From: Deltaproteobacteria bacterium
GTDB taxonomy: Bacteria > SAR324 > NAC60-12
DNA: 64,000 nucleotides
NCBI GenBank assembly: GCA_038150265.1
Contig: JAYOTF010000005.1
Coordinates: 46,469-110,468, forward strand
Reading direction: 5' to 3'
Below the pieces are notes generated by a model that searched no databases, was not told the origin of the DNA, and saw only the letters and a program-made list of their open reading frames with translations. Shown here in pieces: positions 530 through 23,104 of this stretch (position 1 is the stretch's first letter; each line of letters starts with the position of its first letter). The translations under genes and the position numbers were made by a program.

Positions 530-659
530 CAGCGTGTTCCTTGATGAAATGGTATCAAACGGAGCCCGAAGCTTGGGACTCGGATCACGCTTCGATGGGA
601 GAGAAAAGGGCTGGAAGGTTCCGAAGAAGCAGAGGCACCCCGGGAAGGGGGGTGGTGCG

Positions 660-745
660 GAACGTCGTTTTCCTGCGCCGGCATTACCCGGATCAGGTTC
701 CAAGGGTGTTCTCTCAGGCAATGCGCAGGCATCACCACCCCTAAC
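660..745 (-). ncRNA. TPP (thiamine pyrophosphate) riboswitch, THI element, in the 5' leader of thiB
   Basis: Minus-strand sequence GGGGUGGUGAUGCCUGCGCAUUGCCUGAGAGAACACCCUUGGAACCUGAUCCGGGUAAUGCCGGCGCAGGAAAACG. It aligns motif-for-motif with the E. coli thiM aptamer (GGGGUGCCC..GGCUGAGA..ACCC..CACCUGAUCUGGAUAAUGCCAGCGUAGGGAA). Confidence 0.85.
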
Positions 746-769
746 GAAGCTACCAGTAGCTTATCCAGA

Positions 770-2978: not shown

Positions 2979-3833
2979 TTACGCGCCTACTTGCAGGAGC
3001 GCACGCTTGGTGAAGACGCGTGCCATGGCACGGCGGTAGTCTTCGCTGACAGACCAGTCGCTGAGGACGTCCTTGCCTTGGGTCGCCTGATCGGCTGCGG
3101 CTTTGGCCGAAGCGTCATTGACGGCCTGACCCTTGAGGGCATTTTCCACACCGGCATCGCGGAAGGCGGAGTGACCGACGCCACTGAAGCCGACCCGGAT
3201 GTCTGAGCAGGTGCCTCCGGACTTGTCCATGGCGACCGCAACGCCAACGTACGGGTACCGGGAAGCCGGCTGGGCGTACTTGACGTAGCAGGAGTTGGCA
3301 TTGGCCGCATCGGTGGGAATGCGGATTTCCACCAGCAGCTCTCCGGGCTGGACAGCGGTCTCCCACAGGTCCACGAAGTACTCGCTGGCCGGCACCACAC
3401 GCTCGCCACCAGCGCCCTTGATGACCATGCTGGCGTTCAGGGCCAGCACGGCACCCGGGTAATCGGCGGCCGGATCGGAGTGAGCCAGGGCCCCCCCGAT
3501 GGTGCCACGGTTGCGGACCTGGACATCGCCAATGGCCCCAGCGGCCTGGCTCAGCGCCGGAGCTTTTTGCTGAACGACGCTGGAGGATTCCAGCATCCAG
3601 TGGGTGGCCATGGCGCCAACAGCGATGTGATCGCCCTTGTCGTTGATGTACTTCAGGCCTTCGATGCCACCGAGGTCAATCAGCCGCTCCGGGGTCGCCA
3701 GGCGAAGCTTCATGGCTGGGACCAGGCTGTGGCCACCGGCCAGGATTTTGGCGTCCTCGCCATATTGCTGCATGAGCGCAATGGCTTCATCCACGCTGGA
3801 CGCCCGATGATAGTCAAATGAGGTAGGAACCAT
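2979..3833 (-). CDS. Molybdenum hydroxylase FAD-binding subunit (CoxM/CutM-like)
   Basis: N-terminus MVPTSFDYHRASSVDEAIALMQQYGEDAKILAGGHSLVPAMKLR, typical of CO-DH/xanthine-DH medium subunits. Third gene of an S-L-M operon. Confidence 0.85.
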   Translation of the reverse strand: MVPTSFDYHRASSVDEAIALMQQYGEDAKILAGGHSLVPAMKLRLATPERLIDLGGIEGLKYINDKGDHIAVGAMATHWMLESSSVVQQKAPALSQAAGAIGDVQVRNRGTIGGALAHSDPAADYPGAVLALNASMVIKGAGGERVVPASEYFVDLWETAVQPGELLVEIRIPTDAANANSCYVKYAQPASRYPYVGVAVAMDKSGGTCSDIRVGFSGVGHSAFRDAGVENALKGQAVNDASAKAAADQATQGKDVLSDWSVSEDYRRAMARVFTKRALLQVGA

Positions 3834-3921
3834 AAGAAATTCTCCTTTGTCTCAGGTTTCCGTCGCCCCTTCCTGCCGGTCATTCATGCAGCAAGGGGCC
3901 GATCGGGGTTCAGGTTGTGGA

Positions 3922-6285
3922 TCAGGAAGCGCTGTTGATGGCAGCCCAGACCTTTTGCGGGGTCAGGGGCATGGCCAGATCGCTCACTCCCAGCGGGCGC
4001 AGCGCATCCACCACCGCGTTCACAATGGCCGGAGTGGAGCCGATGCAGCCGGCTTCTCCAGCACCCTTGGCACCCAGCGGGTTGTGCGGGCACGGGGTGA
4101 CGTTGCCGTCCACCTCAAAGGAGATCAGGTCATCTGCACGAGGCATGGCGTAATCCAGGAAGGTGCCGGTGGTGAGCTGACCACTTTCGTCATACACTGC
4201 GCCTTCCAGCAACGCCTGACCAATGCCCTGGGCCAGACCGCCGTGAATTTGGCCTTCCACGATCATCGGGTTGACGATGTTTCCGACGTCATCGACCGCG
4301 ACGAAGCGCTTGATGGTCGTCTTGCCGGTTTCCGGATCGACTTCCACAACGGCAATGTAGGTGCCGAAGGGGTAGGTGAAGTTGGCCGGATCATAGAAGC
4401 TGTTGAACTCGATTCCGGGCTCCAGGCCTTCCGGGAAGTTGTGCGGGACGTAGGACGCGAGGGCGACTTCGCCGAAGCTGATCGACTTGTCGGTGCCCTT
4501 CACGGTCCAGCTGCCGTCGGCAAACTCGAGGTCCTGCTCCGACGCCTCCAGGAGGTGTGCCGCCACCTTGGCGCCTTTTTCCTTCACCTTCTCCAGGGCG
4601 CCCACGATGGCGCTTCCGCCGACCGCAAGGCTCCGGGATCCGTAGGTGCCCATGCCGAAGGGGACCTGCTCGGTGTCACCGTGGATGATCTCGACGTTGC
4701 TCATGTCAATGCCAAGGTGATCGGCCACCACCTGAGCAAAGGTGGTGTCGTGTCCCTGACCGTGGGAGTGGCTTCCGGTGTAGACCGACACCATGCCGGT
4801 CGGTTGCACACGGACGTTGGCGCTCTCAAAGAGTCCGGCCCGTGCCCCGAGGGAGCCCACCACCGCCGACGGCGCGATGCCGCAGGCTTCGATGTAGGAC
4901 GAGAAGCCAATGCCGATGTAGCGGCCTTGCTTGCGGGCTTCTTCCTGCTCCTTGCGCAGCTCGTCGTAGCCGATGATGTCCAGGGCCTTGCGCATGGCTG
5001 CTTCGTAGTTGCCGCTGTCGTACTGCAGGGCCACCTGGGTCTGGTACCCCGGTTGGTCCACCCCGTCAAAGGCCGGAATGAAGTTCTTCATGCGCAGCTC
5101 CGCCGGGTCCATGCCCATCTCGGCAGCAGCGGTGTCCATGAGCCGCTCCAGCAGGTAGGTGGCTTCCGGACGTCCGGCCCCCCGGTAGGCGTCCACAGCA
5201 GTGGTGTTGGTGAACACGGCGTTCACACTGACGTACACTGCCGGTGTGGTGTACTGTCCCTGCAGCAGGGTTCCATACAGGTAGGTGGGCACTGCCGTGG
5301 AGAAGGTGGACAGGTACGCGCCAATGTTGGCATCGGTGTGCACCTTGAGCGCCGTCAGCTTGCCGTCGGCATCAAAGCCCATCTGAGCCGTGGTGTGGTG
5401 GTCGCGTCCGTGTGCATCGGTGACAAACGCTTCGCTGCGCTCGGAGGTCCACTTGATCGGGCGTCCAATCTGCTTGGAGGCCCAGGTGACGAGGGCTTCT
5501 TCGGTGTAGTGATAGATCTTGCTGCCGAAGCCGCCACCGACGTCTTTGGCCACCACACGGACCTTGTGCTCGGGAATGCCAAGCACAAAGGCACACATCA
5601 GCAGGCGAATCACGTGCGGATTCTGCGAGGACGTGTAGAGCGTGTAATTGTCGCGAGACGCGTCGTAGTCGCCGATGTAGCTGCGTGGCTCAATCGGGTT
5701 CGGCACCAGACGCTGGTTGCGGATCTTCATGGAGGTGACGTGAGCGGCTTTGGCCAGCCCTTCGTCAGCCGCCGACGCATCTCCGAGTTCCCAGTCAAAG
5801 ACGAGGTTGTCCGGAAGCTCGTCGTGCACCTTTGCTGCACCCGGCTTGAGGGCATCCACCGATTCCACCACCACGGGCAGCTCCTCGTAGTCCACTTCAA
5901 TCAGGTCTGCCGCATCACGGGCCTGAGCCTTGGTTTCGGCAATGACCACGGCCACGCTGTCGCCCACGTGTCGGACCTTGTCGTGTACCAGCAGCGGGTG
6001 CTTGGGCTCCCGCATGGTCTCTCCGCTCTTGAAGTTGACCTGCCAGCCGCAGGGCACTCCGTTGACTTCCTGGACGTCTGCTCCCGTAAAGACGGCCACC
6101 ACTCCAGGGGCTGCCTTGGCGGCAGAGGTGTCAATGCTCTTGATGCGGGCGTGAGCCAGCTGGCTGCGCAGGATGTACGCGTGCGTCATGCGGTGCAGCA
6201 CAATGTCGTCGGTGTAGGTGCCCTTTCCGGTAATAAACCGTTGGTCCTCTACCCGCTTAATCGCTTGTCCAATGTATTTGCCCAT
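3922..6285 (-). CDS. Molybdopterin-binding large subunit of a form-II CoxL-like / xanthine dehydrogenase family enzyme
   Basis: Start ATG at 6285 with AAGGAGG RBS ([22 protein letters not shown]...). Active-site loop reads AYRGAGR (form II), not AYxCSFR of bona fide CO dehydrogenases. Confidence 0.9.
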
Positions 6286-6295
6286 GAATTCCTCC

Positions 6296-6757
6296 TTATG
6301 CGGACTGGTCAGCGGCCCACTGAACGGCCTTGACGATGTTGTCGTATCCCGTGCAGCGGCAGAAGTTTCCTTCGAGCGCATGCCGGATTTCTTGTTCGGA
6401 AGGCTTGGGGTTGCGTTGGAGCAACTGCCAGGAACTCATGATCATCCCCGGGGTGCAGTAGCCACACTGCAAGCCATGCTTCTCGCGGAAGCCCTCTTGA
6501 AGGGGGTGGAGCGTTCCGTTGGAAGCCAGCCCTTCAATCGTGGTGATTTCTGCGCCATCGCACTGCACAGCCAACAGGGTGCAGGACTTGACGGATTCGC
6601 CATTGACAACAATGGTGCAGGCCCCACAGCTGCTGGTATCACAGCCAACGTGGGTGCCGGTCAAACTGAGGTTTTCGCGCAAAAACTGCACGAGCAGGGT
6701 TCGTGGCTCGACGTCTTGGGAGACAGTCGCGCCGTTGACGGTCATCGTGACTTGCAT
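6296..6757 (-). CDS. (2Fe-2S)-binding small subunit (CoxS-like)
   Basis: MQVTMTVNG start with AAGGAGGA RBS. Cys motifs CDTSSCGAC and CGYCTPG..CRCTGY. Confidence 0.9.
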
Positions 6758-6864
6758 GGTGGGTCCTCCTTCTAATTTGGGAGAGAGGGTTAAGGCGCCT
6801 CGTGAGAGCAGAAAGCGCGAATGTGATAGCACGCGGTGCTACCGAAAGTCAATGATTCCGAGTG

Positions 6865-7362: not shown

Positions 7363-7935
7363 CTAGCTCCGAGGCACCGGAGCCACCGCTTCCATGGGCA
7401 ACCCGGCTGCTTCCCAGGCCTCAATTCCGTCCTTGAACCAGGCGATGTGCGAGTAGCCCATTTCGGAGACACGCTTGACGGCGTTCCAGGACATCCAGCA
7501 ATTTGCTGTGCAGTAGAACACAATCCGGACCTCCGGATCAACAGCTGTTTGCGTCCTCATGAAATCCGAAAGGTAATTGAGCCACTCGGGGAGCAAGTCG
7601 CCGTGTCCAACGTTGGGAAGCCAGTAGCTGCCCGCAATGGCACGGTGGGGCTCGTCCCAGATGAAGCGCCCACTTCGGAACAGGGTGGGCTGAACGTCCA
7701 CCAGCACCAGCGGCTTCCCGTCCTGCCGCATGGCTTCCAGTTCCGCGACATGAACGGTCGCACCGCCTTCCGCCGCTTCTGGGGTCGGAAAGCTGTAGTG
7801 CATGATCCGGTAGCCATCGATGGTGAAGTATTCGTCTTCCCAATCATCCGAGGCTCCGGTATCCTGCGACCAAGCCGTGCTGCTCAGCAGCACTACTCCT
7901 AAAACTCCCACCACGAACCGCCTCATGAAACTCAT
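7363..7935 (-). CDS. PQQ-dependent catabolism-associated CXXCW-motif protein (rhodanese-like domain)
   Basis: Signal peptide MSFMRRFVVGVLGVVLLSSTAWSQ. Motif YCTANCWMSWNAVKRV (CxxCW). Alternative start at 7926. Confidence 0.8.
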   Translation of the reverse strand: MSFMRRFVVGVLGVVLLSSTAWSQDTGASDDWEDEYFTIDGYRIMHYSFPTPEAAEGGATVHVAELEAMRQDGKPLVLVDVQPTLFRSGRFIWDEPHRAIAGSYWLPNVGHGDLLPEWLNYLSDFMRTQTAVDPEVRIVFYCTANCWMSWNAVKRVSEMGYSHIAWFKDGIEAWEAAGLPMEAVAPVPRS

Positions 7936-8485
7936 CTTTGCCTTTTTTGTGTTTGTGCTGCTTGGCACACCAGCCGTCCTCCAGGCGGAAGGAGGAACGG
8001 AAAATACGGGGGTTGCCGCCCTGAAGGCCTATGCGGTCTTCAAAATGGGACGCTACGAAGAGTCCCTGGCCATGTGGCAAGCGCTCTCGGATCAGGGCAA
8101 CACCACCGCCATGATCAACCTTGCCAACCAGTACGAAAAGGGCCTAGGGACCCCGAAGGACCTCGATCAGTCCACCTTCTGGCTCACCAGGGCGGCGGAT
8201 CTGGGAGATCCGGTGGCGCAGTTGAACCTTGGCCTGGCCTATGAAGAAGGCCTCGGGGTGGAAAAGAACAACCGCACGGCTGCTCAGTACTTCCGGAAGG
8301 CAGCGGAGCAAGGCGACCGCGACGCTCAGTTCAACCTCGGTGTGATGCTGGCCACCAATTATGGAACCGACGCTCCTCCGGATGCGACGACTGTTGCCGA
8401 GGCCCGACGCTGGCTGACGGCAGCCAAAGAGGCCCGTCATCCGGACGCCGGTACCTTCTTGCAACTGCTTCCGCAGGAGCCGTGA
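7927..8485 (+). CDS. Sel1/TPR-repeat periplasmic protein
   Basis: Signal peptide MKLIFAFFVFVLLGTPAVLQA. Repeated Sel1-like blocks (AMINLANQYEKGLGTPKDLDQSTFWLTRAADLGDPVAQLNLGLAYEEGLGVEKN...). Confidence 0.75.
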
Positions 8486-9478
8486 TCAGCCTTCGGGCAG
8501 CACCCGGACCCCCCACGGGAAGCGTCCCACCTTGATGGACTTGAGCACCTTCAGGTCCTCCACGTCAATCACCGACACATCGCCACTGACCCCGTTGGTG
8601 GTGAGCAGCCGTTTTCCGTCGGGCGTGAGGTCCATGTGCCACACGCGCCGTCCCACCAGCAGGTACTTTTCCACTTCATAGGTTTCCGTGTTGACGACGG
8701 CCACGTGGTTGGCCGGCCCCAGGGCCACAAAGGCGAGGGTCTCATCCTGGTTGAAGCGGATGCCCACGGGCTGAATGCGGTTGGGGTGGATGCCCCGGAT
8801 CTTGAAGCCGAACTCCTTGACGGGTTCCTGCGTGGCCACATCAATCACGTGAATGGTCCCGCCGATCTCAGCCGAAGCCCAGACCAGGTTGCGGGTGTGC
8901 ATGAACTCCACGTGCCGGGGACGCTGTCCCACGAGTGTGTTGTGGACCAACTCCCGGGTTTCGGTGTTGATCCAGTGCAGCATGTTGGTGGTTTCAGACG
9001 TGTTGATCGCCCACTTGCCGTCTGGACTCACCGCCATGCCTTCCGGCTCCACGCCCACGTCAATCTGAGCCAGCACCTCCCGGGTTTCAGTATCGACAAC
9101 GGTGGCAATGTTGTCGTTCTCATTGGAAATGTAGAGGTCCCGGTTGTTGGGGTGCAGGGCAAACTGTTCCGGATCCTCTCCAGAGGGCAGGTTGTGGGTG
9201 ATCGTCCGGGTGGCGACATCCAGCACCTGCACGGTGTTGTCATCGCTGGCACAGATGAACAGGTGCTTGAAGTCCTTGCTGAAGATGATGCCCCGTGGAC
9301 GCAGCCCAACGGGAATCGTTTCGACCAGCTCGAGGGTCTTGAGGTCGATGACCGACAGGGTGTTGTCCTTCTCATTGGAAACCCACGCGGTTTGAGCCAG
9401 CGTCCATCCGGCTGAGCTGAGCCCCAGCACGCCCAGCACCCCCACTTTCCAGAGCTTAATCATCGTCTTCCTCGTCAA
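8486..9478 (-). CDS. PQQ-dependent catabolism-associated beta-propeller protein (YVTN repeat family)
   Basis: Signal peptide followed by repeated blocks: VSNEKDNTLSVIDLKTLELVETIPVG, YISNENDNIATVVDTETREV, FVALGPANHVAVVNTETYEV. Confidence 0.8.
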   Translation of the reverse strand: MTRKTMIKLWKVGVLGVLGLSSAGWTLAQTAWVSNEKDNTLSVIDLKTLELVETIPVGLRPRGIIFSKDFKHLFICASDDNTVQVLDVATRTITHNLPSGEDPEQFALHPNNRDLYISNENDNIATVVDTETREVLAQIDVGVEPEGMAVSPDGKWAINTSETTNMLHWINTETRELVHNTLVGQRPRHVEFMHTRNLVWASAEIGGTIHVIDVATQEPVKEFGFKIRGIHPNRIQPVGIRFNQDETLAFVALGPANHVAVVNTETYEVEKYLLVGRRVWHMDLTPDGKRLLTTNGVSGDVSVIDVEDLKVLKSIKVGRFPWGVRVLPEG

Positions 9479-9884
9479 ATTTGGATTTCTCTTCGTTCAG
9501 GACGCCGGCTTCAATGACGGCCTCGGCAATTCCTGCCTGGGCAACAATGCCGTCCCACGGCATGCCTGCGCGCCACTCGCCCTCATACATCGCCATGTCG
9601 GCACTGGCTTCCAGGCAGAGGCCTGAGGCAATTTCGGGATCGACCTCTTCCACCTCATCGGCTTCGACCGCCGCACAGATTTCCAGGCTTCCATAAAAGT
9701 ACCCCACGCCCTGGCCGTGAGGGACCCCGTCCTGGTCCTCTCCTTCGTACTCGGCCAGGTAGGCGTCCGGAAGCTCGGGTGTCCAGGTGAGGTCTTCGGT
9801 CAGGTAGAGTGAGTTGGCCAAGGTGGCTCCCGGCAGCAAACAGGTGCCCAGAAGCCCGATCAACAGAGAAGCAGTCGGTCTCAT
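9456..9884 (-). CDS. Hypothetical secreted protein with acidic C-terminus
   Basis: Start ATG overlaps upstream gene stop (ATGA coupling at 9881-9884). Signal peptide MRPTASLLIGLLGTCLLPGATLA. Ends ...EEKSKFDEEDDD. Confidence 0.5.
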   Translation of the reverse strand: MRPTASLLIGLLGTCLLPGATLANSLYLTEDLTWTPELPDAYLAEYEGEDQDGVPHGQGVGYFYGSLEICAAVEADEVEEVDPEIASGLCLEASADMAMYEGEWRAGMPWDGIVAQAGIAEAVIEAGVLNEEKSKFDEEDDD

Positions 9885-11059
9885 TGAAAGGCAGTACATT
9901 GGGATTCAGGTTGATCAAAGCCCAGGGTATCCAGCTCCGTTTTCGGGTGCAAAAACCCCTGTTGCGGAGACGTGGAAACGAGGGCACGTGGATGAACCAG
10001 CGGGATGGTCTGACGCAACTGGCCGTTCCAGGACCGGAAGTTCAGGCTCAGCCCCTTGAAGCCGGCAATCTTGAGCTGATCGCCAAGGAGGTACGTCCGG
10101 AGCGTTGTCGGGTCGGCGGCCTTGGTGCGAGTGACCGCCTCGCCGATGGCCCGCATCGCCACCCAGGCGGCATAATCCCGGGCCCGCATGTCACGGTCGG
10201 CGAGGCGCTGAAAGCGTTCCTGCAGCTGCACGGCGCCCCACTGCTCCACCACGCGGTCCCAGGTGGTGGCCACGAGTCCCTGAGTTCCCGCGACTGGGCG
10301 GGGGTCTCGGGTGTGGTAGGGCAGGTATTCGCCAAAGTCTCCGATTTCATCGGCCACGACGAGGATGTCGTACTCCTCTGGAATTTGCGTGAACAGGGGG
10401 AATTCCTGCTGCGCCAGCCGGCGCATGTCCGAGTCGAAGGTCCATTGCTTCTCGGCAACAATCTTGATGCCATACCGCTTGGCTGTCCGCTTGAGGGACG
10501 CGACGTAGAGCCGGTCGCCCGGCTTGTTTCCGGAGATGAGGAACCAGCGCTTCCACTTCATGGCAAGCAGGTACTGCCCGAGCGCATCAGTGAGCATGGC
10601 GCGGCTGGGCAGGGTGTGCAGCAGGTTGGCCTGGCACTGTTCCTCGCGGAGGGCATTTTCCGGGGCTCCCGCATTGAAAAGCAGCACATCGGAGCCGGTG
10701 GCCAATTCGGCTGCGCGTTGGGTTTCTGCCGCCGGTGCATTGAGAACCAGGTACTGGGTTCCGGAGGCAAGGACCTCCTGAACCGCAGCCTCCCAGTCTC
10801 CGCCAGTGGGAACCACGACTTCCTGCAACGTGTAGCTTTGTCCGAGAAAGCGTCCGGAGGCGAGGTTGTCCTGAATGCCAAGCCGAGCCCCCTGGAGGCC
10901 GAGGTCTTCTGGAACTTCATCCAGGTTGGAAAGCACCGGGGGGCGTTCCACTTGTTGCTCCAGGTACGTGACTGCGACCTCGAGTTTGGAGTTCGATTGC
11001 CCCCAGCCGGGAGCGGCGAGAACCATCAGAGCAGTGATCAGGAGGAGACGGAGCTTCAT
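9881..11059 (-). CDS. ABC-type periplasmic substrate-binding protein, PQQ-dependent alcohol dehydrogenase system (LivK-like fold)
   Basis: Signal peptide MKLRLLLITALMVLAAPGWGQ. About 390 aa of type-I PBP architecture. Embedded in the quinoprotein locus. Confidence 0.8.
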   Translation of the reverse strand: MKLRLLLITALMVLAAPGWGQSNSKLEVAVTYLEQQVERPPVLSNLDEVPEDLGLQGARLGIQDNLASGRFLGQSYTLQEVVVPTGGDWEAAVQEVLASGTQYLVLNAPAAETQRAAELATGSDVLLFNAGAPENALREEQCQANLLHTLPSRAMLTDALGQYLLAMKWKRWFLISGNKPGDRLYVASLKRTAKRYGIKIVAEKQWTFDSDMRRLAQQEFPLFTQIPEEYDILVVADEIGDFGEYLPYHTRDPRPVAGTQGLVATTWDRVVEQWGAVQLQERFQRLADRDMRARDYAAWVAMRAIGEAVTRTKAADPTTLRTYLLGDQLKIAGFKGLSLNFRSWNGQLRQTIPLVHPRALVSTSPQQGFLHPKTELDTLGFDQPESQCTAFQ

Positions 11060-11997
11060 TGCGGCGTCTGGATCAGAGAAAAGGTTTGGGCTTCGTATTT
11101 GGGATAAAGGTGAACCACGGAGCGTGCCAGCTCTTCCCGGAAGAGGGCAATGCTTTCAAACTCCTTGGGTGTGGGAGTTTGCATGACCTCGTTCATGTTC
11201 CGTCCCTTCATGCTGGCCCGCGCAAAGACCTCATGAAGCCACTGCAGGTGCTTCTGCGTCTGCTGGATGGGGCGGGTATCGGTGGCCGTTTCGCCATGTC
11301 CGGGCACCAGGAGGGTGAAGGGGAGCTGTTCCAACTCCTTGAGCGATTCCAGCCAGGCCGCAATCTGCGCATGCGGGGTCGCCAGGGCCCGGTTGTGGAA
11401 GACAATGTCTCCGGCAAACAGCACACCGGTGGTTTCATCAAAGATCGCCAGGTCGGCGCTCGTGTGGCCATGCAGGGCGATCAGGCGCAGGCGGTGCCCG
11501 CCAAACTCAACAGTCCCCGGAGCAAGCGTGTGTTGGGGAAGCCGCACATCGGTTCCCTGCATCGGGGCGCCGACGAGGCGGTAGAGGTTGTCCAGAAAGC
11601 CGGGGCCCTGCGTCTTGAGGCCCTCAATGGTCTTCGGAAGCGCATGGAGCTGATCGGCGTCAAAGGCCTGGTTGCCAAAGGCATGATCCGGGTGGTGGTG
11701 GGTGATCCAGACCTGCCAGATGGGCTGATCCGTCACCGTGGCAATGGCCTCCCGGAGCGCCTCGCCATAGAGCTTCGAGGGGCCGGAGTCGATCACGAGC
11801 ACCCCCTCCGGAGTGGTCACGAAGGAGATGTTGACAATGTTGCCGTGATTCTCCCGAGCGAGCCCCTCCTTTTTGCCAAACAGCACATACGTGTCCGGCG
11901 CCACCTGCTGGGGCTTGAGGTCGTAGAAGGACTTGCTCCAGCCAGGACTTGGCAGGAACAGCAGGCTGATCAGGCAGAGGCGGAGCAGCGGCATCAT
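11056..11997 (-). CDS. Quinoprotein relay system zinc metallohydrolase (MBL fold)
   Basis: Signal peptide MMPLLRLCLISLLFLPSPGWS. MBL motif WITHHHPDHAFG, plus later His/Asp ligands (HGHTSAD, GHG). Confidence 0.8.
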   Translation of the reverse strand: MMPLLRLCLISLLFLPSPGWSKSFYDLKPQQVAPDTYVLFGKKEGLARENHGNIVNISFVTTPEGVLVIDSGPSKLYGEALREAIATVTDQPIWQVWITHHHPDHAFGNQAFDADQLHALPKTIEGLKTQGPGFLDNLYRLVGAPMQGTDVRLPQHTLAPGTVEFGGHRLRLIALHGHTSADLAIFDETTGVLFAGDIVFHNRALATPHAQIAAWLESLKELEQLPFTLLVPGHGETATDTRPIQQTQKHLQWLHEVFARASMKGRNMNEVMQTPTPKEFESIALFREELARSVVHLYPKYEAQTFSLIQTPQ

Positions 11998-12800
11998 TGC
12001 ATGGGAAACTGTGAAGCCAGCAGGTCCGGAAGGCGCGTTTGGGATTCAATCACGCCTTCGACCTGGAGGCCATTGTTGTCACGGAAGGTGACCCGGTAGC
12101 CGGACTCAGCGTGGTGCGGATCCAGCGTCAGGGTGGGATTTTCCGCAACGGGCTCATGGAGGCGCAGGCGTCCGAGCAACTCGTCAGTGCTGGCCTCTCG
12201 AACTTCCACCGTTTCAATGATGAAGACGGGGATGCCGTCACTGAGTCCGGTGTCCATGGGGTGCATCAGGCGCACACGCAGGCGGTCGGTGGAGTCGTTT
12301 TCCGGCCAGACCTGTCCCCAGAGCTCGCCGTAGTGGTCCTCCCACGAGGCAATCTGCTGGCCGACGCTGGGCGTGGTGCAGCCTCCTCCTGCCGCATCGA
12401 TGTAGGCTCCACCCACGTGCCAGACGCCATCGGTGGTGCGCATGGCAGCTCGGACCACGGTGCCCTGCTGGACCTTGAGGCGTACGGAAATCGAGGGATC
12501 GGCGTGAACGGGCTCATACGAGAGGACCCGGATGATCGGGTTGAGGTCTGCCATGATCCGGACTTCCTCCACCTGGCCGTCTCCCCTCCAGTAGGCACTG
12601 ACGGGGACCTGCATGCTGTCTTCTGCAGAGGCAGGAAGCAGCACCTCTACCTGCGAGTCAAAGGCCACTGGGCCTCCGTCCAGGTGGTGCTCATGCACGT
12701 ACTCCCACATGGGGGACTGGTAGGGGTCTTCCGGGACAGCGGCCCACGCGGTCAGGCCTCCTAGCAGGGCCACCGTGGTGGCCAGGAACGATTTGATCAT
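11994..12800 (-). CDS. Quinoprotein dehydrogenase-associated SoxYZ-like carrier (SoxY-SoxZ fusion architecture)
   Basis: Secreted 268-aa protein with internal AAGGGCTTPS (SoxY-type GGCGG-like carrier-cysteine motif at the domain junction). 4-nt overlaps with both neighbours. Confidence 0.65.
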   Translation of the reverse strand: MIKSFLATTVALLGGLTAWAAVPEDPYQSPMWEYVHEHHLDGGPVAFDSQVEVLLPASAEDSMQVPVSAYWRGDGQVEEVRIMADLNPIIRVLSYEPVHADPSISVRLKVQQGTVVRAAMRTTDGVWHVGGAYIDAAGGGCTTPSVGQQIASWEDHYGELWGQVWPENDSTDRLRVRLMHPMDTGLSDGIPVFIIETVEVREASTDELLGRLRLHEPVAENPTLTLDPHHAESGYRVTFRDNNGLQVEGVIESQTRLPDLLASQFPMQ

Positions 12801-13516
12801 GCTTCCTCCTTATCAGGTGCGGAAAAGGTAAGCTCGCGACGCAACTCGGCCAGAAACTCGGCGTTTCGGTGTTCCCGAGGCTGGGTCAGGTGAGTCTCGT
12901 GTACAATGCCCCGGGCTTCCGGGCTGAAGAACAGGACTCGGTCGGCCAACTCCAGCGCCTCGTTGAGGTCGTGGGTGACAAAGAGCACCGCGCACTGGCG
13001 TTCCTCCCACAGCTCAAGGAGCAGGCGGCGGAGCAAAGCCGCGTTTTCTTCATCAAGTGAAACAAATGGCTCATCAAGCAGCAACAGGTCCGGCTGAATC
13101 GAGAACGCGCGGGCCAGCGAAACGCGACGGGCCATGCCCAGTGAGAGGTCTCCGGGATACGCCTGTCGGTAGTCGAGCAGGCCCATGCGCTTCAGGTAGC
13201 GGAGCGGGCGGTCGCTGGACCGTTCTTCCGGAGGCAGCACCAGCCGGAGGTTCTGCTCAATGGTCCGCCATGGCAGCAGCGTGGGCTCTTGAAAGACATA
13301 CGCCAGCCGCTGCTCAGGCGCTTGGTCAAAGCGGCCCTCGAAGTGCGGGTCAATGCCGGCGATGAGGTTCAAGAGGGTCGTCTTGCCACACCCGGAAGGG
13401 CCTGAGAGGGCAATGAACTCCCCTGGTGCCACGGTGATGGAAACATTTTCCAAAACCACCCGGGGAGGCTCGCCTGCGCGTCCCGGAAAGGCCTTGCGTT
13501 CCAGATCAATCTGCAA
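12797..13516 (-). CDS. ABC transporter ATP-binding protein (PQQ-ADH system transporter)
   Basis: Walker A GPSGCGKTT, signature LSLGMARRVSLARA, Walker B LLLLDEPFVSLDE. Confidence 0.9.
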   Translation of the reverse strand: MQIDLERKAFPGRAGEPPRVVLENVSITVAPGEFIALSGPSGCGKTTLLNLIAGIDPHFEGRFDQAPEQRLAYVFQEPTLLPWRTIEQNLRLVLPPEERSSDRPLRYLKRMGLLDYRQAYPGDLSLGMARRVSLARAFSIQPDLLLLDEPFVSLDEENAALLRRLLLELWEERQCAVLFVTHDLNEALELADRVLFFSPEARGIVHETHLTQPREHRNAEFLAELRRELTFSAPDKEEA

Positions 13517-13528
13517 CTGCCCTCACTT

Positions 13529-14281
13529 TCATGCTGGAACCGCCTTCCAGCGATTGGACCAGCGCTCAAGGGGTTGCAGGATCTGCCACTCAATCAACTG
13601 GACAACGACAATAAAAGCCGCACTGTAGGCCAGGATGCCGGCAACGTCAAATAGCTGGAAGTACGCGTGGAGCTGAAAGCCGACGCCGTTGCTGCGTCCG
13701 AGTAGCTCGACGACCAGGACGATCTTCCAGATGAGCGCCAGTCCGGAACGCGCTGCTGCGGCAAGGTAGGGAGCCAGTTGGGGCAGCAGGATGTGCCAAA
13801 AGCGGTCGGCCCAGGAGAGGCGGTAGCTGATGGCCAGCGCGTTGAACTGCGGGTTGAAGCTCCGGGCGCCTTCCCGCAGGATCACGGTGACGTTCGGGAC
13901 CTTGTTCAGGATGACGGCCAGCAACGCCGCTGCTTCCACCAGCCCCATGCTGAGGTAGCAGAGAATGATGGTCACCAATGCAGGGACGTTGAGCAGGATG
14001 ACCAGCCAGAGGTCCAGAGTGGAGTTGACTCGCTCGGAGCGCCCCATGGCAACCCCGATGAGGCTTCCGGTGAACATGGCAATCACAAAGCAGATCAGCA
14101 CGCGCTTGAGGGTGATGCCGAGGTGCCACCAAAGCTCCCCGCTCTGGGCTTCTTCCCAGAGTACCTCAAGGGTCTTGCCTGGGGTGGGCAAAAACGGAAT
14201 CCACTGTCCAGAGGCAGCCAGGTGCCACGCTCCGACAATCAGCAGTAAGGATCCCCACGCACCCCAGCTATGCTGCTTCAT
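13529..14281 (-). CDS. ABC transporter permease (NitT/TauT-type)
   Basis: Six predicted TM segments, binding-protein-dependent permease fold. Confidence 0.85.
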   Translation of the reverse strand: MKQHSWGAWGSLLLIVGAWHLAASGQWIPFLPTPGKTLEVLWEEAQSGELWWHLGITLKRVLICFVIAMFTGSLIGVAMGRSERVNSTLDLWLVILLNVPALVTIILCYLSMGLVEAAALLAVILNKVPNVTVILREGARSFNPQFNALAISYRLSWADRFWHILLPQLAPYLAAAARSGLALIWKIVLVVELLGRSNGVGFQLHAYFQLFDVAGILAYSAAFIVVVQLIEWQILQPLERWSNRWKAVPA

Positions 14282-15261
14282 GACTCGACGTCAGCCACTC
14301 CCCAGAAGGTGCCTTCGGCCAGCTGCGTGCTGTCGCCAATGAGCTTCTTGCCACCCAGTTTTCCCAAAATCCGGAAGAGCTTTTTGGCATCCCGGACCCC
14401 GGCTGCTGTGACGGGTTGGGGGGTGCCTTCGAGGTAACCCCGCTTGAGCTGCTCAAATTCCGCATCGTTCCTGGTTCCCATCTTGGGACGGAGCGAAGTC
14501 CAGGCGTCCGGATTGCGAGCGAGCAGGTCCTTGGCGCTGGTGGAGGCCTGAACCATCCCGGCGACTGCTTCAGGGTTGGCCTTGGCCCAGTCTTCCATGA
14601 AGATGTACCCCAGCATCGGCACCTGCTCCGTGATGCCAAGCTGAGGAGCAACGTCGGTCAGGTTCATCAGGCGCTTCATGCCGGCCGCCTCAAGCTTGGC
14701 GGCAAAGTGCCAGTAGGTGATCACGGCGTCGACGCGTCCAGCCTGCAGCTCCTTGCTCAGCAGCGGCGGTGCGCCAAAGACCTTCTCGATGGAATTGAGA
14801 TCCAGGTTGTCCTGCTGCCCAAGGGCCTGCAGCATGAGCCAGCCCTTGGAGAGGGCGCCACCGACCACTCCGAGCTTCTTCCCTTCGAGGTCCTTGACGG
14901 AGGTGATGCCCGAGTCCGGACGGATCATCAGGCCACCGACCGAGGACGAGTAGGGGACAAAGCTAAAGGCGTGGCCCTGGTCGCGCATCCGGGAAACCCA
15001 CATCCAGTCGGCAACCGCAACATCGGCAGCGCCCTGCTGAACGGCCATCCGGGTGGCACCAATGTCGGCGAGTTCCAGAATCTCCAACTCAATGCCGGCC
15101 TGGCGGTCCAGTCCGTTTTCCACAATGGCATTCAACTCCCAGTTGACCGTACCGGTTTTGGTACTGGCAACGCGAACCGTGGTTGCGGCGGCGGCAGAGC
15201 TCAGCAAGAGGCCTGAGACGGCAACCGCCAGAAATCGTTTAATCAGCATCGTTCTCCTCAT
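14278..15261 (-). CDS. ABC transporter substrate-binding protein (NMT1/NitT/TauT family)
   Basis: Signal peptide MLIKRFLAVAVSGLLLSSAAAA. About 320-aa periplasmic SBP immediately upstream of the permease and ATPase. Confidence 0.8.
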   Translation of the reverse strand: MRRTMLIKRFLAVAVSGLLLSSAAAATTVRVASTKTGTVNWELNAIVENGLDRQAGIELEILELADIGATRMAVQQGAADVAVADWMWVSRMRDQGHAFSFVPYSSSVGGLMIRPDSGITSVKDLEGKKLGVVGGALSKGWLMLQALGQQDNLDLNSIEKVFGAPPLLSKELQAGRVDAVITYWHFAAKLEAAGMKRLMNLTDVAPQLGITEQVPMLGYIFMEDWAKANPEAVAGMVQASTSAKDLLARNPDAWTSLRPKMGTRNDAEFEQLKRGYLEGTPQPVTAAGVRDAKKLFRILGKLGGKKLIGDSTQLAEGTFWGVADVES

Positions 15262-16202
15262 TCAGGGTTCAGGTACTCCGGAAGCCGGTAGGTCATGCCG
15301 TATTGGGCATAGATCTTCTCCATGGTGCCGTCATTCACCATTTGAGTTACCTGGTCTTCCAACGCATAGCCGAGGTCACGAGAGTCCTGCCGGACGGCCA
15401 TTCCGATGTCCCATTCGGTCCGCGGTTCAGCCATTTCGTAGGTGCACTCCGCCTCAATTTCAACTTTTGAGGTCCAGTCTTTTTTGATGTCGGGGCAGCG
15501 GATCACGCGTTGAGGAGTGAGAAGCCCGGCGAGAGGGGGCTGGAACACGTTGATGTTCTCGGTCTCCGAGAGCATGCTTTCCACAGGGCCGGATAGGCCC
15601 ATGACGGCGGCGACCTCTCCGGTGCGGAGCGCGTCCGTTGCTGCAGTCAGGTTGGGGTAGCGGACAATGCCGCGGTTGAGGCGTCCCCCAAACATGCCGG
15701 ACAGGATGAAGTCCGGAATGCTGTCCAGTTCCACACCCACCTTCTCATACATGAAGATGGCGTAATTGGGGAACGACTCAATCTTGCGGACGTCGTGCGC
15801 CAGCAAGAAGGTTTCAGACTGGTAGGGGGCCGTGATGACGACGAGCTCGTTCCGGAGGGCAAACTCCAGATCAAAGGGGATGCGGAGCATGAAGTCCGCC
15901 ACCTCCCAGTTCCGGATGGCGTTGCCTTTTCCAACAGCCACCCGCAGGTCGGCATCCACGTTTTCCCCGGCCTCATGCCAGTGCCAGCGGGGCTCCACCC
16001 CGAGCCGTCGGGCGATCTCTCGCCCAATCTCGACATCAGAGCCTCGCGGTTCCCCATTCTCCTGATAGGAAAAGGGGGGGAAGTCGGTGTACACGGCAAT
16101 GGAGATGTACCCCGACTCCATGACGTCATCCAGCAAGCGGGCACTGGCCGAACTGAGTGAGACCAGTAACGCCGCGAGGATGCAGAACGCTTTATTCCAC
16201 AT
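15258..16202 (-). CDS. Quinoprotein dehydrogenase-associated periplasmic solute-binding protein (XoxJ/MoxJ-like, SBP family 3)
   Basis: Start MWNKAFCILAALLVSLSSASA at 16202. Family-3 SBP features. Directly downstream of the cytochrome gene. Confidence 0.75.
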   Translation of the reverse strand: MWNKAFCILAALLVSLSSASARLLDDVMESGYISIAVYTDFPPFSYQENGEPRGSDVEIGREIARRLGVEPRWHWHEAGENVDADLRVAVGKGNAIRNWEVADFMLRIPFDLEFALRNELVVITAPYQSETFLLAHDVRKIESFPNYAIFMYEKVGVELDSIPDFILSGMFGGRLNRGIVRYPNLTAATDALRTGEVAAVMGLSGPVESMLSETENINVFQPPLAGLLTPQRVIRCPDIKKDWTSKVEIEAECTYEMAEPRTEWDIGMAVRQDSRDLGYALEDQVTQMVNDGTMEKIYAQYGMTYRLPEYLNPE

Positions 16203-16611
16203 GGACCGTATCCAGCCAGCTGCGGATCGCCCACATGGCTTCTTGGCTAAAGACCTCTTCAAAGGCCGGCATGTAGGTCATCCCGTTGCGGATGACCCCG
16301 TTGCGGATGCGCATCAGGAACCACTCGTCGCCTTCCATCCCCACCGGCAGCATGCGCAGGTCGGGGGCAATGCCGCCCGAGATGGCCTCAAGGCCGTGGC
16401 AGCGGGCGCAGTTTTGGTTGTAGGCCGAGGCGCCAATTTCAATGGCCCGCTCGTTTCCGCGGTAGGGGTTTTCATCCAGCCACTCGTCACCCAAAGGCTC
16501 CAGGCCACTGGTGTCGACCAACTGCGGAGTGACATCGCCATGGGAGAAAGCTGAGCCCGTCCATCCGACGAGGCCAATGAAGAGAGCAAATGCGCTAACA
16601 ATGAGTCTCAT
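16192..16611 (-). CDS. Cytochrome c550 (PedF/ExaB-type electron acceptor of the PQQ dehydrogenase)
   Basis: Signal peptide MRLIVSAFALFIGLVGWTGSAFS. Single haem motif CARCHG. About 139 aa. Confidence 0.8.
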   Translation of the reverse strand: MRLIVSAFALFIGLVGWTGSAFSHGDVTPQLVDTSGLEPLGDEWLDENPYRGNERAIEIGASAYNQNCARCHGLEAISGGIAPDLRMLPVGMEGDEWFLMRIRNGVIRNGMTYMPAFEEVFSQEAMWAIRSWLDTVHVE

Positions 16612-16714
16612 GATCCATCCAAAAATTGGGGGTTTGGAGTCTGGCAACGTGGAGGAGGCGGAGGCGGGACCGGTCATGAGCTTCCGCGTCTCCATGCTGA
16701 CGAAGGTTCCGGTG

Positions 16715-16762
16715 TCTGGGAAGAAAACCAGGGAATGAAAGGGAGGAGCCGAAGCTCCTCCC
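16715..16762 (-). terminator. Intrinsic terminator/attenuator between the PQQ dehydrogenase gene and the cytochrome gene
   Basis: On the minus-strand RNA: GGGAGGAGC-UUCG-GCUCCUCCC (9-bp GC stem, UUCG tetraloop) followed by UUUCAUUCCCUGGUUUUCUUCC. Confidence 0.55.
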
Positions 16763-16768
16763 GGGAAC

Positions 16769-18556
16769 TCAGTTGCTGCCGAGTTGCAGCGTGTCCTTCT
16801 GGTTGTTGTAGGTGCTCAGCTTCGGAAGCTTGAAGGTCCAGACCATGCCACCCTGGTTGAGGTAGTTGACGGTCTTGGCGACTTCACCGCCCCACAGCGG
16901 AACGGCTCCGCCCCATCCGGACACGACGGTGACGTACTGCTCACCGTCCATGCGCCAGGTGACGGGGGATCCGACGATTCCGGAACCGGTCTGGAACTTC
17001 CAGAGGGTCTCACCGGTCTCATCATCAACCGCCATGAATTGGCCTTCCGGAGTTCCGTAGAACACCAGTCCTCCACCCGTGGTCAGCACGCCACCCCACA
17101 GCGGAGCGTTGTTGCGCTTTTCCCACTTGATGTCACCCGTGCGGGGATCGATCGCCTTGAGGGCGCCGATGTAGTCCTCATGCAGCGGCTTGATGGTGAA
17201 GCCGGCTCCGAGGTAAGCCGCACCTTTTTTGTAGGTGACGGGCTCGTTCCAGAGGTCCATCGCCCAGGAGTTGGACGGCACGTAGAAGTTGCCGGTGCGC
17301 TGGCTGTAGGCCATCGGCATCCAGTTCTTTCCACCGAGGAAGGACGGGTAGACCACGATCGGCTCACCCTTGTCCTGGCCGGCCGGATTTCCGGGGCGCA
17401 GCTGGTTCGGAAGCGGACGGCAGTTTTCGTCCAGTCCCTCGGTCCAGTTCACTTCCACAAACGGAAGGGCGCGGATGCACTTGCCGTTCTCACGGTTGAG
17501 GACGTAGAAGTGTCCGTTTCGGTCGGCCTTGGCGCCGGCCTTGATGGTGCGACCGGTCTTGGGGTCGATGTAGTCAAAGGAGACGAACTCGTTGACGCCA
17601 TCATAGTCCCAGTGGTCATTCGGAGTGCCCTGGAAGTGCCACTTGATGACGCCGGTGTTGACGTCGATGGCGAGGGTGGAGGTGCTGTAGAGGTTGTCCC
17701 CCTTGCGCAGGTACGCGTTCCAGGGAGCCGGGTTGCCGGTTCCGAAGAAGGCGAGGCCGGTGTCCGGGTCGTAGGTGCCGCCCAGCCAGGTGGCTGCGCC
17801 GCCGAACTTCCACATTTCACCCGGCCAGGTCTTGCCTGCGGCACCACCCGTGATGCCGTTGTCCTTGCCGTTCAGGGTGCCCATGTGGCCCTCAACGGTG
17901 GGGCGGGACCAGACCAGCTCACCGGTGTTGACGTCACGAGCCTCAACTTTTCCGACAATGCCGAATTCACCCCCGGACACTCCGGTGATGACCATGCTGT
18001 TGACGACCAGCGGAGCGGCGGTGTAGGAGTACCCGGCTTTGTAGTCTCCCAGCTTCTTGCTCCAGACGACCTTCCCGGTTTTCTTGTTCAGCGCCACGAG
18101 CTTGGCATCCAGGGTGCCGAAGATCACCTTGTCTCCGCTCAGAGCGGCGCCACGGTTGACCACGTCACAGCACGGCATGATGCCGTCTGGGAGGCGAGCC
18201 TCGTACTGCCACAGCTCCTCTCCCGTCCGGGCATCGACCGCGAACAGGCGAGAGTAGGAAGCGGTGACGTACATCACGCCATCTTCGATGAGCGGCTGGG
18301 TTTCCTGTCCACGCTGCTTCTCACCGCCAAAGGAGAAGGCCCAGGCGGGGAGCAGGTTTTGGACGTTGTCCTTGTTGATGTCGGTCAGCGGACTGTAGCG
18401 CTGGCCTTGCGGTCCCAGTCCGGTCCCCAGAACGTCCTCAACGCTGTTTTGGTCATTGAGGATTTCGGCGTCCGTGGTGGCCAGAGCTGGCCCGGCTGGA
18501 AGCGCGAGGAGTGCTGCTGCGGCCAGGCCGAAGTAGCTCATGTTTCGTTTTTTCAT
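16769..18556 (-). CDS. PQQ-dependent alcohol dehydrogenase, lanthanide-dependent type (PedH/ExaF/XoxF-like)
   Basis: Signal peptide, vicinal CC ([10 protein letters not shown]), propeller W-motifs. WDYDG (catalytic Asp plus the extra Asp diagnostic of Ln coordination). 595 aa. Confidence 0.95.
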
Positions 18557-22615: not shown

Positions 22616-23104
22616 GATCGAAAACTCCAATCTCAGAGGAAAATCAGGCGGACGCACCGCCGACTAAACGGGAAGAGCCTCCAAGATTTCAAGGTTTTCG
22701 TGGGGTTGTCAATGAAAAAGCGCCAAGGGCGTCAGGAAGGATTCATGAGGAGGGAGGCTCCGGAAGGGAGCCAAGAGGGCCTTCCGGAGGGGTGAGCGAT
22801 CAATGCTGCTCTTGGGTGCCGTGGGTCTGCTTCCACGCAAGGTAAGCCGCTTGTGCGTCATAGGCGTTGCGGTACTCGGTGCGGAAGTAGTTCTTCATCG
22901 CCAGTTCGTTGTTTCGGGTAGGGCTCAGCCAGTTCAGAATTTTCATTGTGTGATCTCAGATTTGAGTGTCCCGACATCCCTCGGGAAGGAAGAGCCAAAC
23001 CAATTGGCCCTTGTTACTAAATCAATTTAGCGCTGGTTTTATACAAACTCAAACCTGTTTTTGTAACAATAGTTGCTTTTATTTGGAATGAAACGAATGG
23101 GAGG

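Follow-up and report, generated by a model that had tools for sequence, protein, structure and literature searches.

The analyzed window, a 64,000-nucleotide stretch of contig JAYOTF010000005.1 from an uncultured bacterium of the SAR324 lineage, contains, among its listed open reading frames (ORFs), a reverse-strand gene for a 268-amino-acid carrier protein (11994..12800, stop codon included, ATG start). The protein matches the curated equivalog family TIGR04557 over profile positions 1-224 of 226 (183.1 bits, E = 4.6e-54, cutoff 140), and this family name is exactly what the pipeline of the NCBI would assign to the gene. Among Pfam profiles, the SoxY score is 72 bits and that of SoxZ 24.9, marginally below the cutoff of 25; the SoxY-like N-terminal domain and the SoxZ-like C-terminal domain reside in a single polypeptide. 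The original prediction of a SoxY-SoxZ fusion-like carrier is borne out by these matches, and the protein evidently is an ordinary member of a catalogued family of periplasmic SoxY-SoxZ fusions with one conserved cysteine. A forward-strand ORF at 12039..12764 was rejected as a true gene: it is a high-GC shadow ORF, and all homology lies in the reverse-strand frame.

The carrier starts with a putative Sec signal peptide that has no twin-arginine motif (residues 1-20, 12741..12800, reverse strand; MIKSFLATTVALLGGLTAWA, with a putative cleavage site before AV); in the predicted structure, the N-terminus is a low-confidence helix (residues 2-15). The Ig-like SoxY and SoxZ folds that had been anticipated for this protein appear in the predicted structure as two beta-sandwiches, a SoxY-like one (residues 44-141, 12378..12671, reverse strand) and a SoxZ-like one (residues 171-247, 12060..12290, reverse strand) with the invariant HPMDTGL motif (residues 180-186, 12243..12263, reverse strand). 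The two are joined by a flexible linker (residues 137-159, 12324..12392, reverse strand), the sole internal stretch of low pLDDT, in which the block of residues 141-150 averages 50 and residues 147-149 fall below 50. The protein ends with a short helical tail (residues 254-264) that is common only to its closest relatives.

The signature A136-A-G-G-G-C141-T-T-P144 (12369..12395, reverse strand) overlaps the first residues of the linker. It includes AAGGGCTT (residues 136-143, that is, A136-A137-G138-G139-G140-C141-T142-T143; 12372..12395), precisely where a GGGC motif near residue 140 of 268 had been proposed, and the peptide IDAAGGGCTTPSVG is present in the carrier translation as well. Cys141 (codon TGC, 12378..12380) is the sole cysteine in the translation. 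In an alignment of 48 sequences with 41-89% identity, G138, G139, G140, C141, T142, and P144 are invariant; GGGC[TS]xP[SA] occurs in all 120 retrieved homologs, and the cysteine is the only one in 114 of the 120. The proposed likeness to SoxYZ structures holds as well: HMMER aligns Cys141 with the terminal GGC of crystallized SoxY (4uwq_B, 2ox5_Y, 2oxg_Y). Because the TIGR04557 match, the invariant residues, the occurrence in 120 of 120 homologs, and the alignment with the SoxY GGC coincide, the mid-protein GGGC is, to judge from sequence comparison, no chance motif. The cysteine is missing from a few distant fused relatives (P0195, P0228). Lanthanide binding by the carrier itself was considered and is not favored: the invariant acidic and histidine residues (E60; HPMDTG) are common to SoxY and SoxZ, and a thiolate would be a poor Ln3+ ligand.

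The SoxYZ of the thiosulfate-oxidizing Sox pathway is a candidate identity for such a protein; the Pfam SoxY cutoff is exceeded, with SoxZ only marginally missed, and several relatives have been labeled 'sulfur-oxidizing protein SoxY' by JGI annotators. However, the carrier scores below the cutoffs for true SoxY with its GGCGG (TIGR04488, 39.4 vs 125 bits) and true SoxZ (TIGR04490, 22.8 vs 76 bits), and NCBIfam and Pfam scans of window ORFs turned up no SoxAX, SoxB, or SoxCD. Furthermore, the carrier is one chain, whereas SoxYZ of Paracoccus pantotrophus (2OX5/2OXG) and Thermus thermophilus (4UWQ) is a heterodimer, although the predicted Ig-like beta-sandwich folds are shared with both SoxY and SoxZ. 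Instead of the free C-terminal GGCGG of SoxY, which is absent, the carrier has an internal cysteine (141 of 268) followed by TTPS (T-x-P) and 127 further residues. The leader also differs: that of SoxY is of the Tat type, and that of the carrier putatively of the Sec type. In the literature, the TIGR04557 family serves as an outgroup to, or is purposely set apart from, genuine SoxY/Z. With the true-SoxY and true-SoxZ cutoffs failed, the cysteine internal, and no Sox enzymes among the scanned window ORFs, identification as a canonical Sox carrier is effectively refuted.

Directly downstream of the carrier gene, with its start overlapping the carrier stop by 4 nt (ATGA), is a gene for a SoxH-like MBL-fold protein (11056..11997, reverse strand), 'quinoprotein relay system zinc metallohydrolase 1' (hereinafter MBL1; TIGR04558, 399.9 bits, cutoff 300). 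In all 73 genome loci that contain both genes, that of the MBL directly follows that of the carrier. The predicted two-metal ligands of MBL1 are complete (HxHxDH, H, D, H; H100, H102, D104, H105, H178, D197, and H234), as they are in 69 of the 76 orthologous MBL matches; in 4 of the 76, found beside carriers, the ligands are missing. Outside its own family, MBL1 is most similar to hydroxyacylglutathione hydrolase GloB (TIGR03413, E = 2e-12) and, in the PDB, to the PqsE thioesterase, LACTB2, and GloB. A natural tri-domain protein combining SoxY, SoxZ, and MBL is encoded in two independent assemblies (P0260, P0268), which argues for the carrier and the MBL being physical partners, as far as gene fusion can indicate this. 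In P0260, the metal motif HxHxDH is degenerate, with THARAEF in place of HHHPDH; a single-sequence AF2 model of this fusion is of low confidence (pLDDT 39.5). The degenerate motif, the 4 matches without ligands beside carriers, and the few distant fused relatives that lack the cysteine would be expected if the SoxYZ fold served only as a scaffold, binding the MBL-like partner or the dehydrogenase with no covalent carriage and with the cysteine loop as a recognition element. We consider this very unlikely, given that within the family proper the cysteine is strictly invariant across 120 of 120 homologs and lies in a disordered loop rich in glycine, as reactive residues typically do, and that the MBL ligands are complete in the large majority of the matches. 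The window contains no second MBL (TIGR04559), no second PQQ dehydrogenase, and no second carrier.

The carrier and MBL1 belong to a gene string on the reverse strand that includes, upstream, a lanthanide-type PQQ alcohol dehydrogenase (16769..18556; TIGR03075, 753 bits; WDYDG; vicinal cysteines in PCCD), the cytochrome c-550 PedF (16192..16695; TIGR04494, 207.9 bits), and a periplasmic SBP_bac_3 protein in the PedG/MoxJ position (15258..16262; Pfam PF00497). The proposed link to a quinoprotein system is thereby supported: the dehydrogenase is encoded 4 kb upstream on the same strand and, in 49 of the 53 long loci, lies within 10 kb of the carrier. Its carrier-linked ortholog has WD[YF]DG in 58 of 58 readable matches, plus vicinal Cys-Cys (one further match is too short for the Cys-Cys to be read); the second, less similar dehydrogenase present in some loci has WDFSG, the Ca type. 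An extra Asp (D-x-D) in PQQ dehydrogenases is a mark of lanthanide dependence. By the criteria of D-[YF]-D, Cys-Cys, and PedF, the dehydrogenase cluster is predicted to be of the lanthanide-dependent ped type (PedH/ExaF/XoxF-like).

Downstream of MBL1, the string continues (8486..11059, reverse strand) with genes for a PedA1-like SBP (9881..11059; TIGR03863, 500.6 bits), the start of which overlaps the MBL1 stop by 4 nt, the acidic orf147 (9456..9899), and a PedA2-like beta-propeller (8486..9478; TIGR03866, 507.3 bits). Further along the same strand is a gene for a rhodanese-fold 'PQQ-dependent catabolism-associated CXXCW motif protein' (7363..7968; TIGR03865, 163.5 bits; Pfam Rhodanese; the motif reads YCTANCW), a homolog of which lies within 10 kb in 18 of the 53 loci, mostly, straight after MBL1. 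Next to the cluster are the genes for the three subunits of an aldehyde-oxidoreductase-type Mo-hydroxylase, and a two-domain thioredoxin-like protein with CPYC and CEDC is encoded 9 kb upstream.

In 39 of the 53 loci, the PedG/MoxJ-position homolog directly precedes the carrier. Here, an Ssu/Tau-like ABC importer (12797..15261, reverse strand) is inserted between the two, consisting of an NMT1-type SBP (14278..15261), a permease (13529..14281), and an ATPase (12797..13516), the stop of which overlaps the carrier start by 4 nt (ATGA). The importer-carrier order is repeated in a metagenome relative with 88% identity (L081), whereas no such insertion was found in the 53 genome loci or in L083. 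The importer just upstream appears to be the sole local peculiarity of the carrier locus.

The carrier gene set itself is already known, from the Pseudomonas putida ped cluster, methylotrophs, and lucinid symbionts. In P. putida KT2440, PP_2677 of the ped cluster belongs to the same family, likewise has two domains with a GGGC in the middle of the protein, and has like neighbors: PedF, PedG, a SoxH-like MBL, a PedH-type dehydrogenase, PedA1/A2, and the rhodanese/CXXCW protein. The clusters differ in that, here, the importer trio separates the carrier from the PedG-position gene, and the propeller gene is not followed by ABC genes of the PedB/PedC type. For SoxYZ-S2 of Candidatus Thiodiazotropha and other symbionts, a 2024 mSystems paper (PMC11237559) describes a fusion of SoxY and SoxZ in which the swinging-arm signature is divergent, encoded together with a PQQ quino(hemo)protein alcohol dehydrogenase, alcohol dehydrogenase accessory genes, soxH, and a rhodanese. 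In the Thiodiazotropha loci that we retrieved (L011, L016, L025-L028), the order is PQQDH-PedF-SBP-SoxYZ-MBL1-CXXCW, and the carriers are 47-53% identical to the window protein, which apparently matches SoxYZ-S2, with S2, rather than S4, assigned by gene context only. The same paper (PMC11237559; SoxYZ-S2/S4) and a second paper on sulfur biology assign such fusions to carbon, not sulfur, metabolism. Similar associations of carrier, MBL, and quinoprotein are the Sox(YZ) fusion with SoxH beside a PQQ enzyme in Hyphomicrobium denitrificans and META1p1703-1705 near xoxFGJ in Methylorubrum extorquens, an ensemble that the authors describing it concluded to be an accessory of alcohol catabolism. The Hyphomicrobium neighbors include pmpAB (YeeE-like half transporters) and those of Methylorubrum a thioredoxin-like gene; in the window, a search beside the CXXCW gene yielded no pmpAB-like ORF.

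Altogether, the interpretation of the protein in the original prediction is supported, for a family that was already known, and annotation of the present copy adds little; the value lies in the family. The latter (117 clusters at 50% identity, E <= 1e-30) widely accompanies PQQ alcohol dehydrogenases of the lanthanide type as an accessory and is strictly paired with a putative metallohydrolase. The question of its chemistry is slightly sharpened by the adjacency in 73 of 73 loci, the D-[YF]-D type of the nearby high-identity dehydrogenase throughout, and the natural tri-domain fusion. The genetically tractable P. putida is a better test ground for the carrier function than the present uncultured relative. 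The literature searched contains context descriptions and hypotheses on TIGR04557 members; we found no experimental report on any of them there.

The single-chain TIGR04557 fusion with two Ig-like beta-sandwiches in the predicted structure and an invariant Cys141 in a Gly-rich disordered inter-domain loop can be considered established, as can the location of the carrier/MBL pair in one gene string with a PQQ alcohol dehydrogenase of the lanthanide type, its cytochrome c-550, and proteins like PedA1 and PedA2. By analogy with SoxYZ, the carrier probably functions as a swinging arm: the Cys141 thiol would covalently bind a small group, the flexible loop would offer this group to partner enzymes, and the adjacent MBL hydrolase would split the adduct to yield the free thiol again, in parallel with SoxB acting on SoxY-S-SO3-. 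As to the group carried, we tentatively favor a sulfur adduct, a persulfide or S-sulfonate, at a rough probability of 0.35-0.4. Under this hypothesis, the trio would shield the lanthanide-dependent dehydrogenase from damage by sulfur nucleophiles, rather than serve energy metabolism; the sulfur species would be taken from the periplasm or from the strained vicinal disulfide or PQQ of the dehydrogenase, and the rhodanese-fold CxxxCW protein would be the third member of the relay. This possibility is favored by the fact that all three conserved partners (SoxY/Z, SoxH-like MBL, and rhodanese fold) come from sulfur-handling families. It is also compatible with the suggestions of a ped review, namely, protection of PQQ from sulfur nucleophiles or maintenance of the disulfide or cofactor in REE-dependent alcohol dehydrogenases (PMC12997753).

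Several observations count against the sulfur adduct, as does the assignment of SoxYZ-S2/S4 to carbon metabolism in the mSystems paper. The loop is tethered at both ends and accordingly has a shorter reach into an active site than the free C-terminus of SoxY, and HxHxDH is degenerate in the natural tri-domain fusion. Many of the carrier hosts, namely, Thauera, Aromatoleum, Methyloversatilis, and P. putida, are not known as sulfur oxidizers. RB-TnSeq in P. putida yielded minimal phenotypes, albeit under REE-free conditions (PMC12997753). Finally, among proteins with an established activity, those nearest to MBL1 in sequence (PqsE, GloB) hydrolyze thioesters, so that an aldehyde would fit equally well as the cargo. 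In such a relay, an aldehyde produced by the PQQ dehydrogenase would form a thiohemiacetal on Cys141 and then a thioester, which the glyoxalase-II-like MBL would hydrolyze to the acid, in a periplasmic, protein-thiol analog of glutathione-dependent formaldehyde/glyoxal detoxification. The pairing of carrier and MBL with an alcohol dehydrogenase (within 10 kb in 49 of the 53 long loci), the GloB (TIGR03413), PqsE, and LACTB2 matches, the term 'relay system' in the curated family names, and the assignment of the fusions to carbon metabolism in both sulfur-biology papers all agree with this scheme. The thioesterase similarities are, however, weak (E = 1e-5 to 1e-12), and an oxidant for the protein-bound thiohemiacetal is not evident. 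The active site of PQQ alcohol dehydrogenases is reached through a narrow funnel, for which a doubly tethered loop would be a poor probe, and PedE/PedH-type enzymes oxidize aldehydes directly; in addition, a Mo-hydroxylase of the aldehyde-oxidoreductase type adjoins the cluster. Given that this scheme also would not account for the rhodanese-fold partner or for why only the lanthanide-type paralog is linked, we regard an aldehyde relay as rather unlikely.

The vicinal PCCD pair of the dehydrogenase, the position of the carrier straight after the PedG/MoxJ-position gene in 39 of the 53 loci, and the CPYC/CEDC thioredoxin-like protein 9 kb upstream point in another direction, to enzyme maturation or redox maintenance. 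The single cysteine, acting alongside the rhodanese-fold CxxxCW protein and a thioredoxin-like protein of the periplasm, could form transient mixed disulfides to build or repair the vicinal Cys-Cys or to aid PQQ/lanthanide insertion. Such a role would, however, leave no obvious task for the metal-dependent hydrolase, the most tightly linked partner (73 of 73), and we know of no SoxY/SoxZ scaffold that acts as a thiol-disulfide oxidoreductase. According to the ped review, the M. extorquens operon includes a thioredoxin-like gene, and the function may be to form disulfides or stabilize the cofactor; yet P. aeruginosa, which lacks these genes, still matures Ca-type enzymes in which the Cys-Cys pair is identical (PMC12997753). 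On balance, we consider a maturation function unlikely. Similarly speculative, and in our view improbable, is a composite of the carriage schemes, in which the carrier cysteine on its SoxYZ scaffold would replace glutathione, with an adduct (an aldehyde thioester or a persulfide/S-sulfonate) formed at or near the lanthanide PQQ dehydrogenase and removed by the glyoxalase-II-like MBL; alcohol oxidation that depends on lanthanides would specifically need this carrier/MBL system, and in the present organism the system would be translationally coupled to the Ssu-like importer, which would take up the released product. Among RNA elements, an Rfam scan detected only a TPP riboswitch, distant from the carrier locus.

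The ORF at 11994..12800 (minus strand, ATG start) is a single frame of 268 codons, with AAGGGCTT at residues 136-143 and Cys141 (codon 12378..12380) as the sole cysteine; when the ORF and its translation were re-read, the coordinates, length, and motif position given in the original prediction proved accurate. The claim that this putative carrier is a SoxY-SoxZ fusion stood as well. By sequence, the protein classifies, at 183.1 bits (E 4.6e-54), as a regular member of TIGR04557, a curated equivalog model with a cutoff of 140 bits, and combines in one chain a SoxY region (Pfam SoxY on residues 44-141, 72 bits) and then a SoxZ-like region (Pfam SoxZ on residues 171-247, 24.9 bits, slightly below the gathering score of 25). 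It fails the models of genuine SoxY (39.4 vs 125 bits required) and genuine SoxZ (22.8 vs 76 bits). When the PDB was searched with the carrier alone, Thermus SoxY was retrieved (4uwq_B, E 3e-8); a profile of 48 sequences retrieved SoxY at E 8e-17, 2e-6, and 9e-4, and SoxZ (1v8h_A and 4uwq_C) at E 6e-3. In all SoxY alignments that reach the C-terminus (4uwq_B, 2ox5_Y, and 2oxg_Y), Cys141 falls on the substrate-carrying GGC. Structure prediction, suggested originally as a check for SoxY/SoxZ Ig-like folds, left the claim standing because the confident AlphaFold2 model based on the same 48 sequences (pLDDT 88.8, pTM 0.83) consists of two beta-sandwiches. The sole internal low-confidence stretch of this model is the linker starting at the motif (mean pLDDT of 50 for block 141-150), and the single invariant Cys lies on this flexible loop.

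A database search produced 1417 relatives of the carrier, the nearest being 88% identical and many bearing the NCBI name of the TIGR04557 family; an exhaustive profile search, clustered at 50% identity, yielded 117 clusters at E<=1e-30 and 506 at E<=1e-10. Among the residues invariant in the alignment of 48 sequences (41-89% identity) are G138, G139, G140, C141, T142, and P144, along with HPMDTGL (180-186), E216, P217, E220, and P222. All 120 retrieved homologs contain both GGGC[TS]xP[SA] and HPMDTG, and in 114 of these, the motif Cys is the only one beyond the leader. Remoter fused relatives retain GG(G)C[ST] at mid-protein, with the Cys lost in a few.

In the window, the carrier belongs to a same-strand string of genes encoding an AraC regulator, a PQQ dehydrogenase (TIGR03075, 753 bits), PedF (cytochrome c-550), an SBP_bac_3 protein in the PedG position (15258..16262, minus strand), a Ssu/Tau-like ABC importer trio (NMT1-type SBP, permease, and ATPase; 12797..15261, minus strand), the carrier, the MBL hydrolase MBL1 (TIGR04558, 400 bits) directly after it, a PedA1-like SBP (TIGR03863), an acidic 147-aa ORF (9456..9899, minus strand), and a PedA2-like beta-propeller (TIGR03866). 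ATGA overlaps are present at the ATPase-carrier, carrier-MBL1, and MBL1-SBP junctions. A rhodanese-fold CXXCW protein (TIGR03865; 7363..7968, minus strand) is encoded slightly past the end of the string; its motif reads YCTANCW, that is, C-x3-C-W, with the first Cys at the position expected for the rhodanese catalytic Cys and the usual loop Arg missing. No pmpAB-like genes were found next to it, and the window contains no second MBL, carrier, or dehydrogenase.

The carrier is strictly paired with a ligand-complete MBL hydrolase and is associated with lanthanide-type PQQ dehydrogenases. We sampled 80 species-representative genome loci, with neighborhood counts taken from the 53 that span 18 kb or more. 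In all 73 loci with both genes, the MBL ortholog directly follows the carrier, at an estimated gap of -15 to 143 bp. Within 10 kb of the carrier, a PQQ dehydrogenase is encoded in 49 of the 53 loci, PedF in 45, a PedG-position SBP in 39, and a CXXCW protein in 18, the commonest order being dehydrogenase, PedF, SBP, carrier, MBL. A Ssu-like ABC trio occurs near the carrier in a minority of loci, at other positions; it does not separate the SBP from the carrier in any of the 53. The window shares its placement only with an 88% identical metagenome contig (L081). The 55% relative (L083) has the usual order, and the only local peculiarities of the carrier are the inserted importer and a short C-terminal helix.

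We infer, with a probability of about 0.7, that Cys141 would bear a covalent adduct that is removed by the MBL hydrolase. The carrier would work similarly to SoxYZ but, unlike SoxYZ, outside the Sox system, to which it does not belong; no Sox enzymes were found among the ORFs scanned in the window. MBL1 keeps all seven ligands of the two-metal MBL site, and the set is complete in 69 of 76 orthologous matches. Its closest relatives of known activity, at weak similarity, are the thioester hydrolases GloB, PqsE, and LACTB2. An aldehyde-derived thioester as the adduct appears unlikely. SoxY+SoxZ+MBL tri-domain metagenome proteins of 555 and 556 aa, 99% identical, come from two independent assemblies (P0260 and P0268), and their MBL part aligns across the full length of MBL1. 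The HxHxDH metal motif is degenerate in this fusion (THARAEF), as it is in 4 of the 76 MBL matches beside carriers. The existence of such a natural fusion supports a physical partnership of the carrier and the MBL, with no word on chemistry; that the carrier, with its invariant Cys, is a non-covalent scaffold seems highly improbable.

In the PQQ dehydrogenase of the window, the vicinal Cys pair reads PCCD, and a WDYDG motif supplies the additional Asp, a mark of lanthanide-dependent enzymes. Among dehydrogenases beside carrier-MBL pairs (loci L001-L080), those matching the window enzyme at 60% identity or higher have WD[YF]DG in all 58 readable cases; one more match is too short to show the Cys-Cys motif. 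Second dehydrogenases of the same loci, 51-53% identical, mostly carry WDFSG (Ca type). We tentatively favor a sulfur species as the adduct: each of the three conserved partners belongs to a family that handles sulfur, and sulfur nucleophiles target strained vicinal disulfides and PQQ.

The carrier is already known as a family member. In a review of the ped cluster, PP_2677 represents its family and PP_2678 the SoxH-like hydrolase; counterparts are absent from P. aeruginosa, homologs lie near xoxFGJ in M. extorquens, and RB-TnSeq under REE-free conditions gave minimal phenotypes (PMC12997753). The review proposes either that the two proteins maintain disulfides or cofactors in REE-dependent ADHs or that they shield PQQ from sulfur nucleophiles (PMC12997753). 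We consider it rather improbable that the carrier acts in redox or maturation. In Thiodiazotropha, SoxYZ-S2 fusions adjoin PQQ ADH, soxH, and rhodanese genes, and a role in carbon metabolism was judged likelier than one in sulfur metabolism (PMC11237559), a view similar to that of a Hyphomicrobium study (PMC11582611). In other works, the family served as outgroup for true SoxZ or was filtered out. The literature found on the family reports no adduct, activity, or clear phenotype.

Several further features of the region were noted. Directly past the dehydrogenase stop codon, a strong hairpin (16741..16762, minus strand; GGGAGGAGC-TTCG-GCTCCTCCC, then TTTCATT) is probably a partial terminator that would keep the dehydrogenase level above that of the downstream accessory genes. 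The PedG-position protein scores below every NCBIfam cutoff, and its SBP match covers only the N-terminal ~65 residues, so the domain may be divergent or interrupted; translation probably begins ~20 codons after the listed TTG. The 147-aa product, encoded between the PedA1-like and PedA2-like genes, has a signal peptide, a very acidic composition with an EEDDD end, and two MORN-like YEGE..G.P.G repeats, and a family search gave no significant match; its slot is taken in L081 and L083 by ORFs of 142 and 162 aa, likewise without family matches. This protein may handle lanthanides in the periplasm. A 355-aa protein (21590..22657, minus strand), encoded upstream of a GST-like gene and the AraC regulator in a position kept in L081, combines an N-terminal hydrophobic signal-like stretch with two thioredoxin-like domains (CPYC and CEDC). 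A TPP riboswitch (653..752, minus strand; Rfam RF00059, 69.3 bits) bears no relation to the carrier. Adjoining the cluster, 2979..6832 (minus strand) encodes a molybdenum hydroxylase with three subunits (one for FAD, one of 819 aa for Mo, and one for 2Fe-2S that lacks a Tat leader), possibly a cytoplasmic aldehyde-oxidizing partner; L083 likewise has a Fer2_2 gene after its rhodanese gene.
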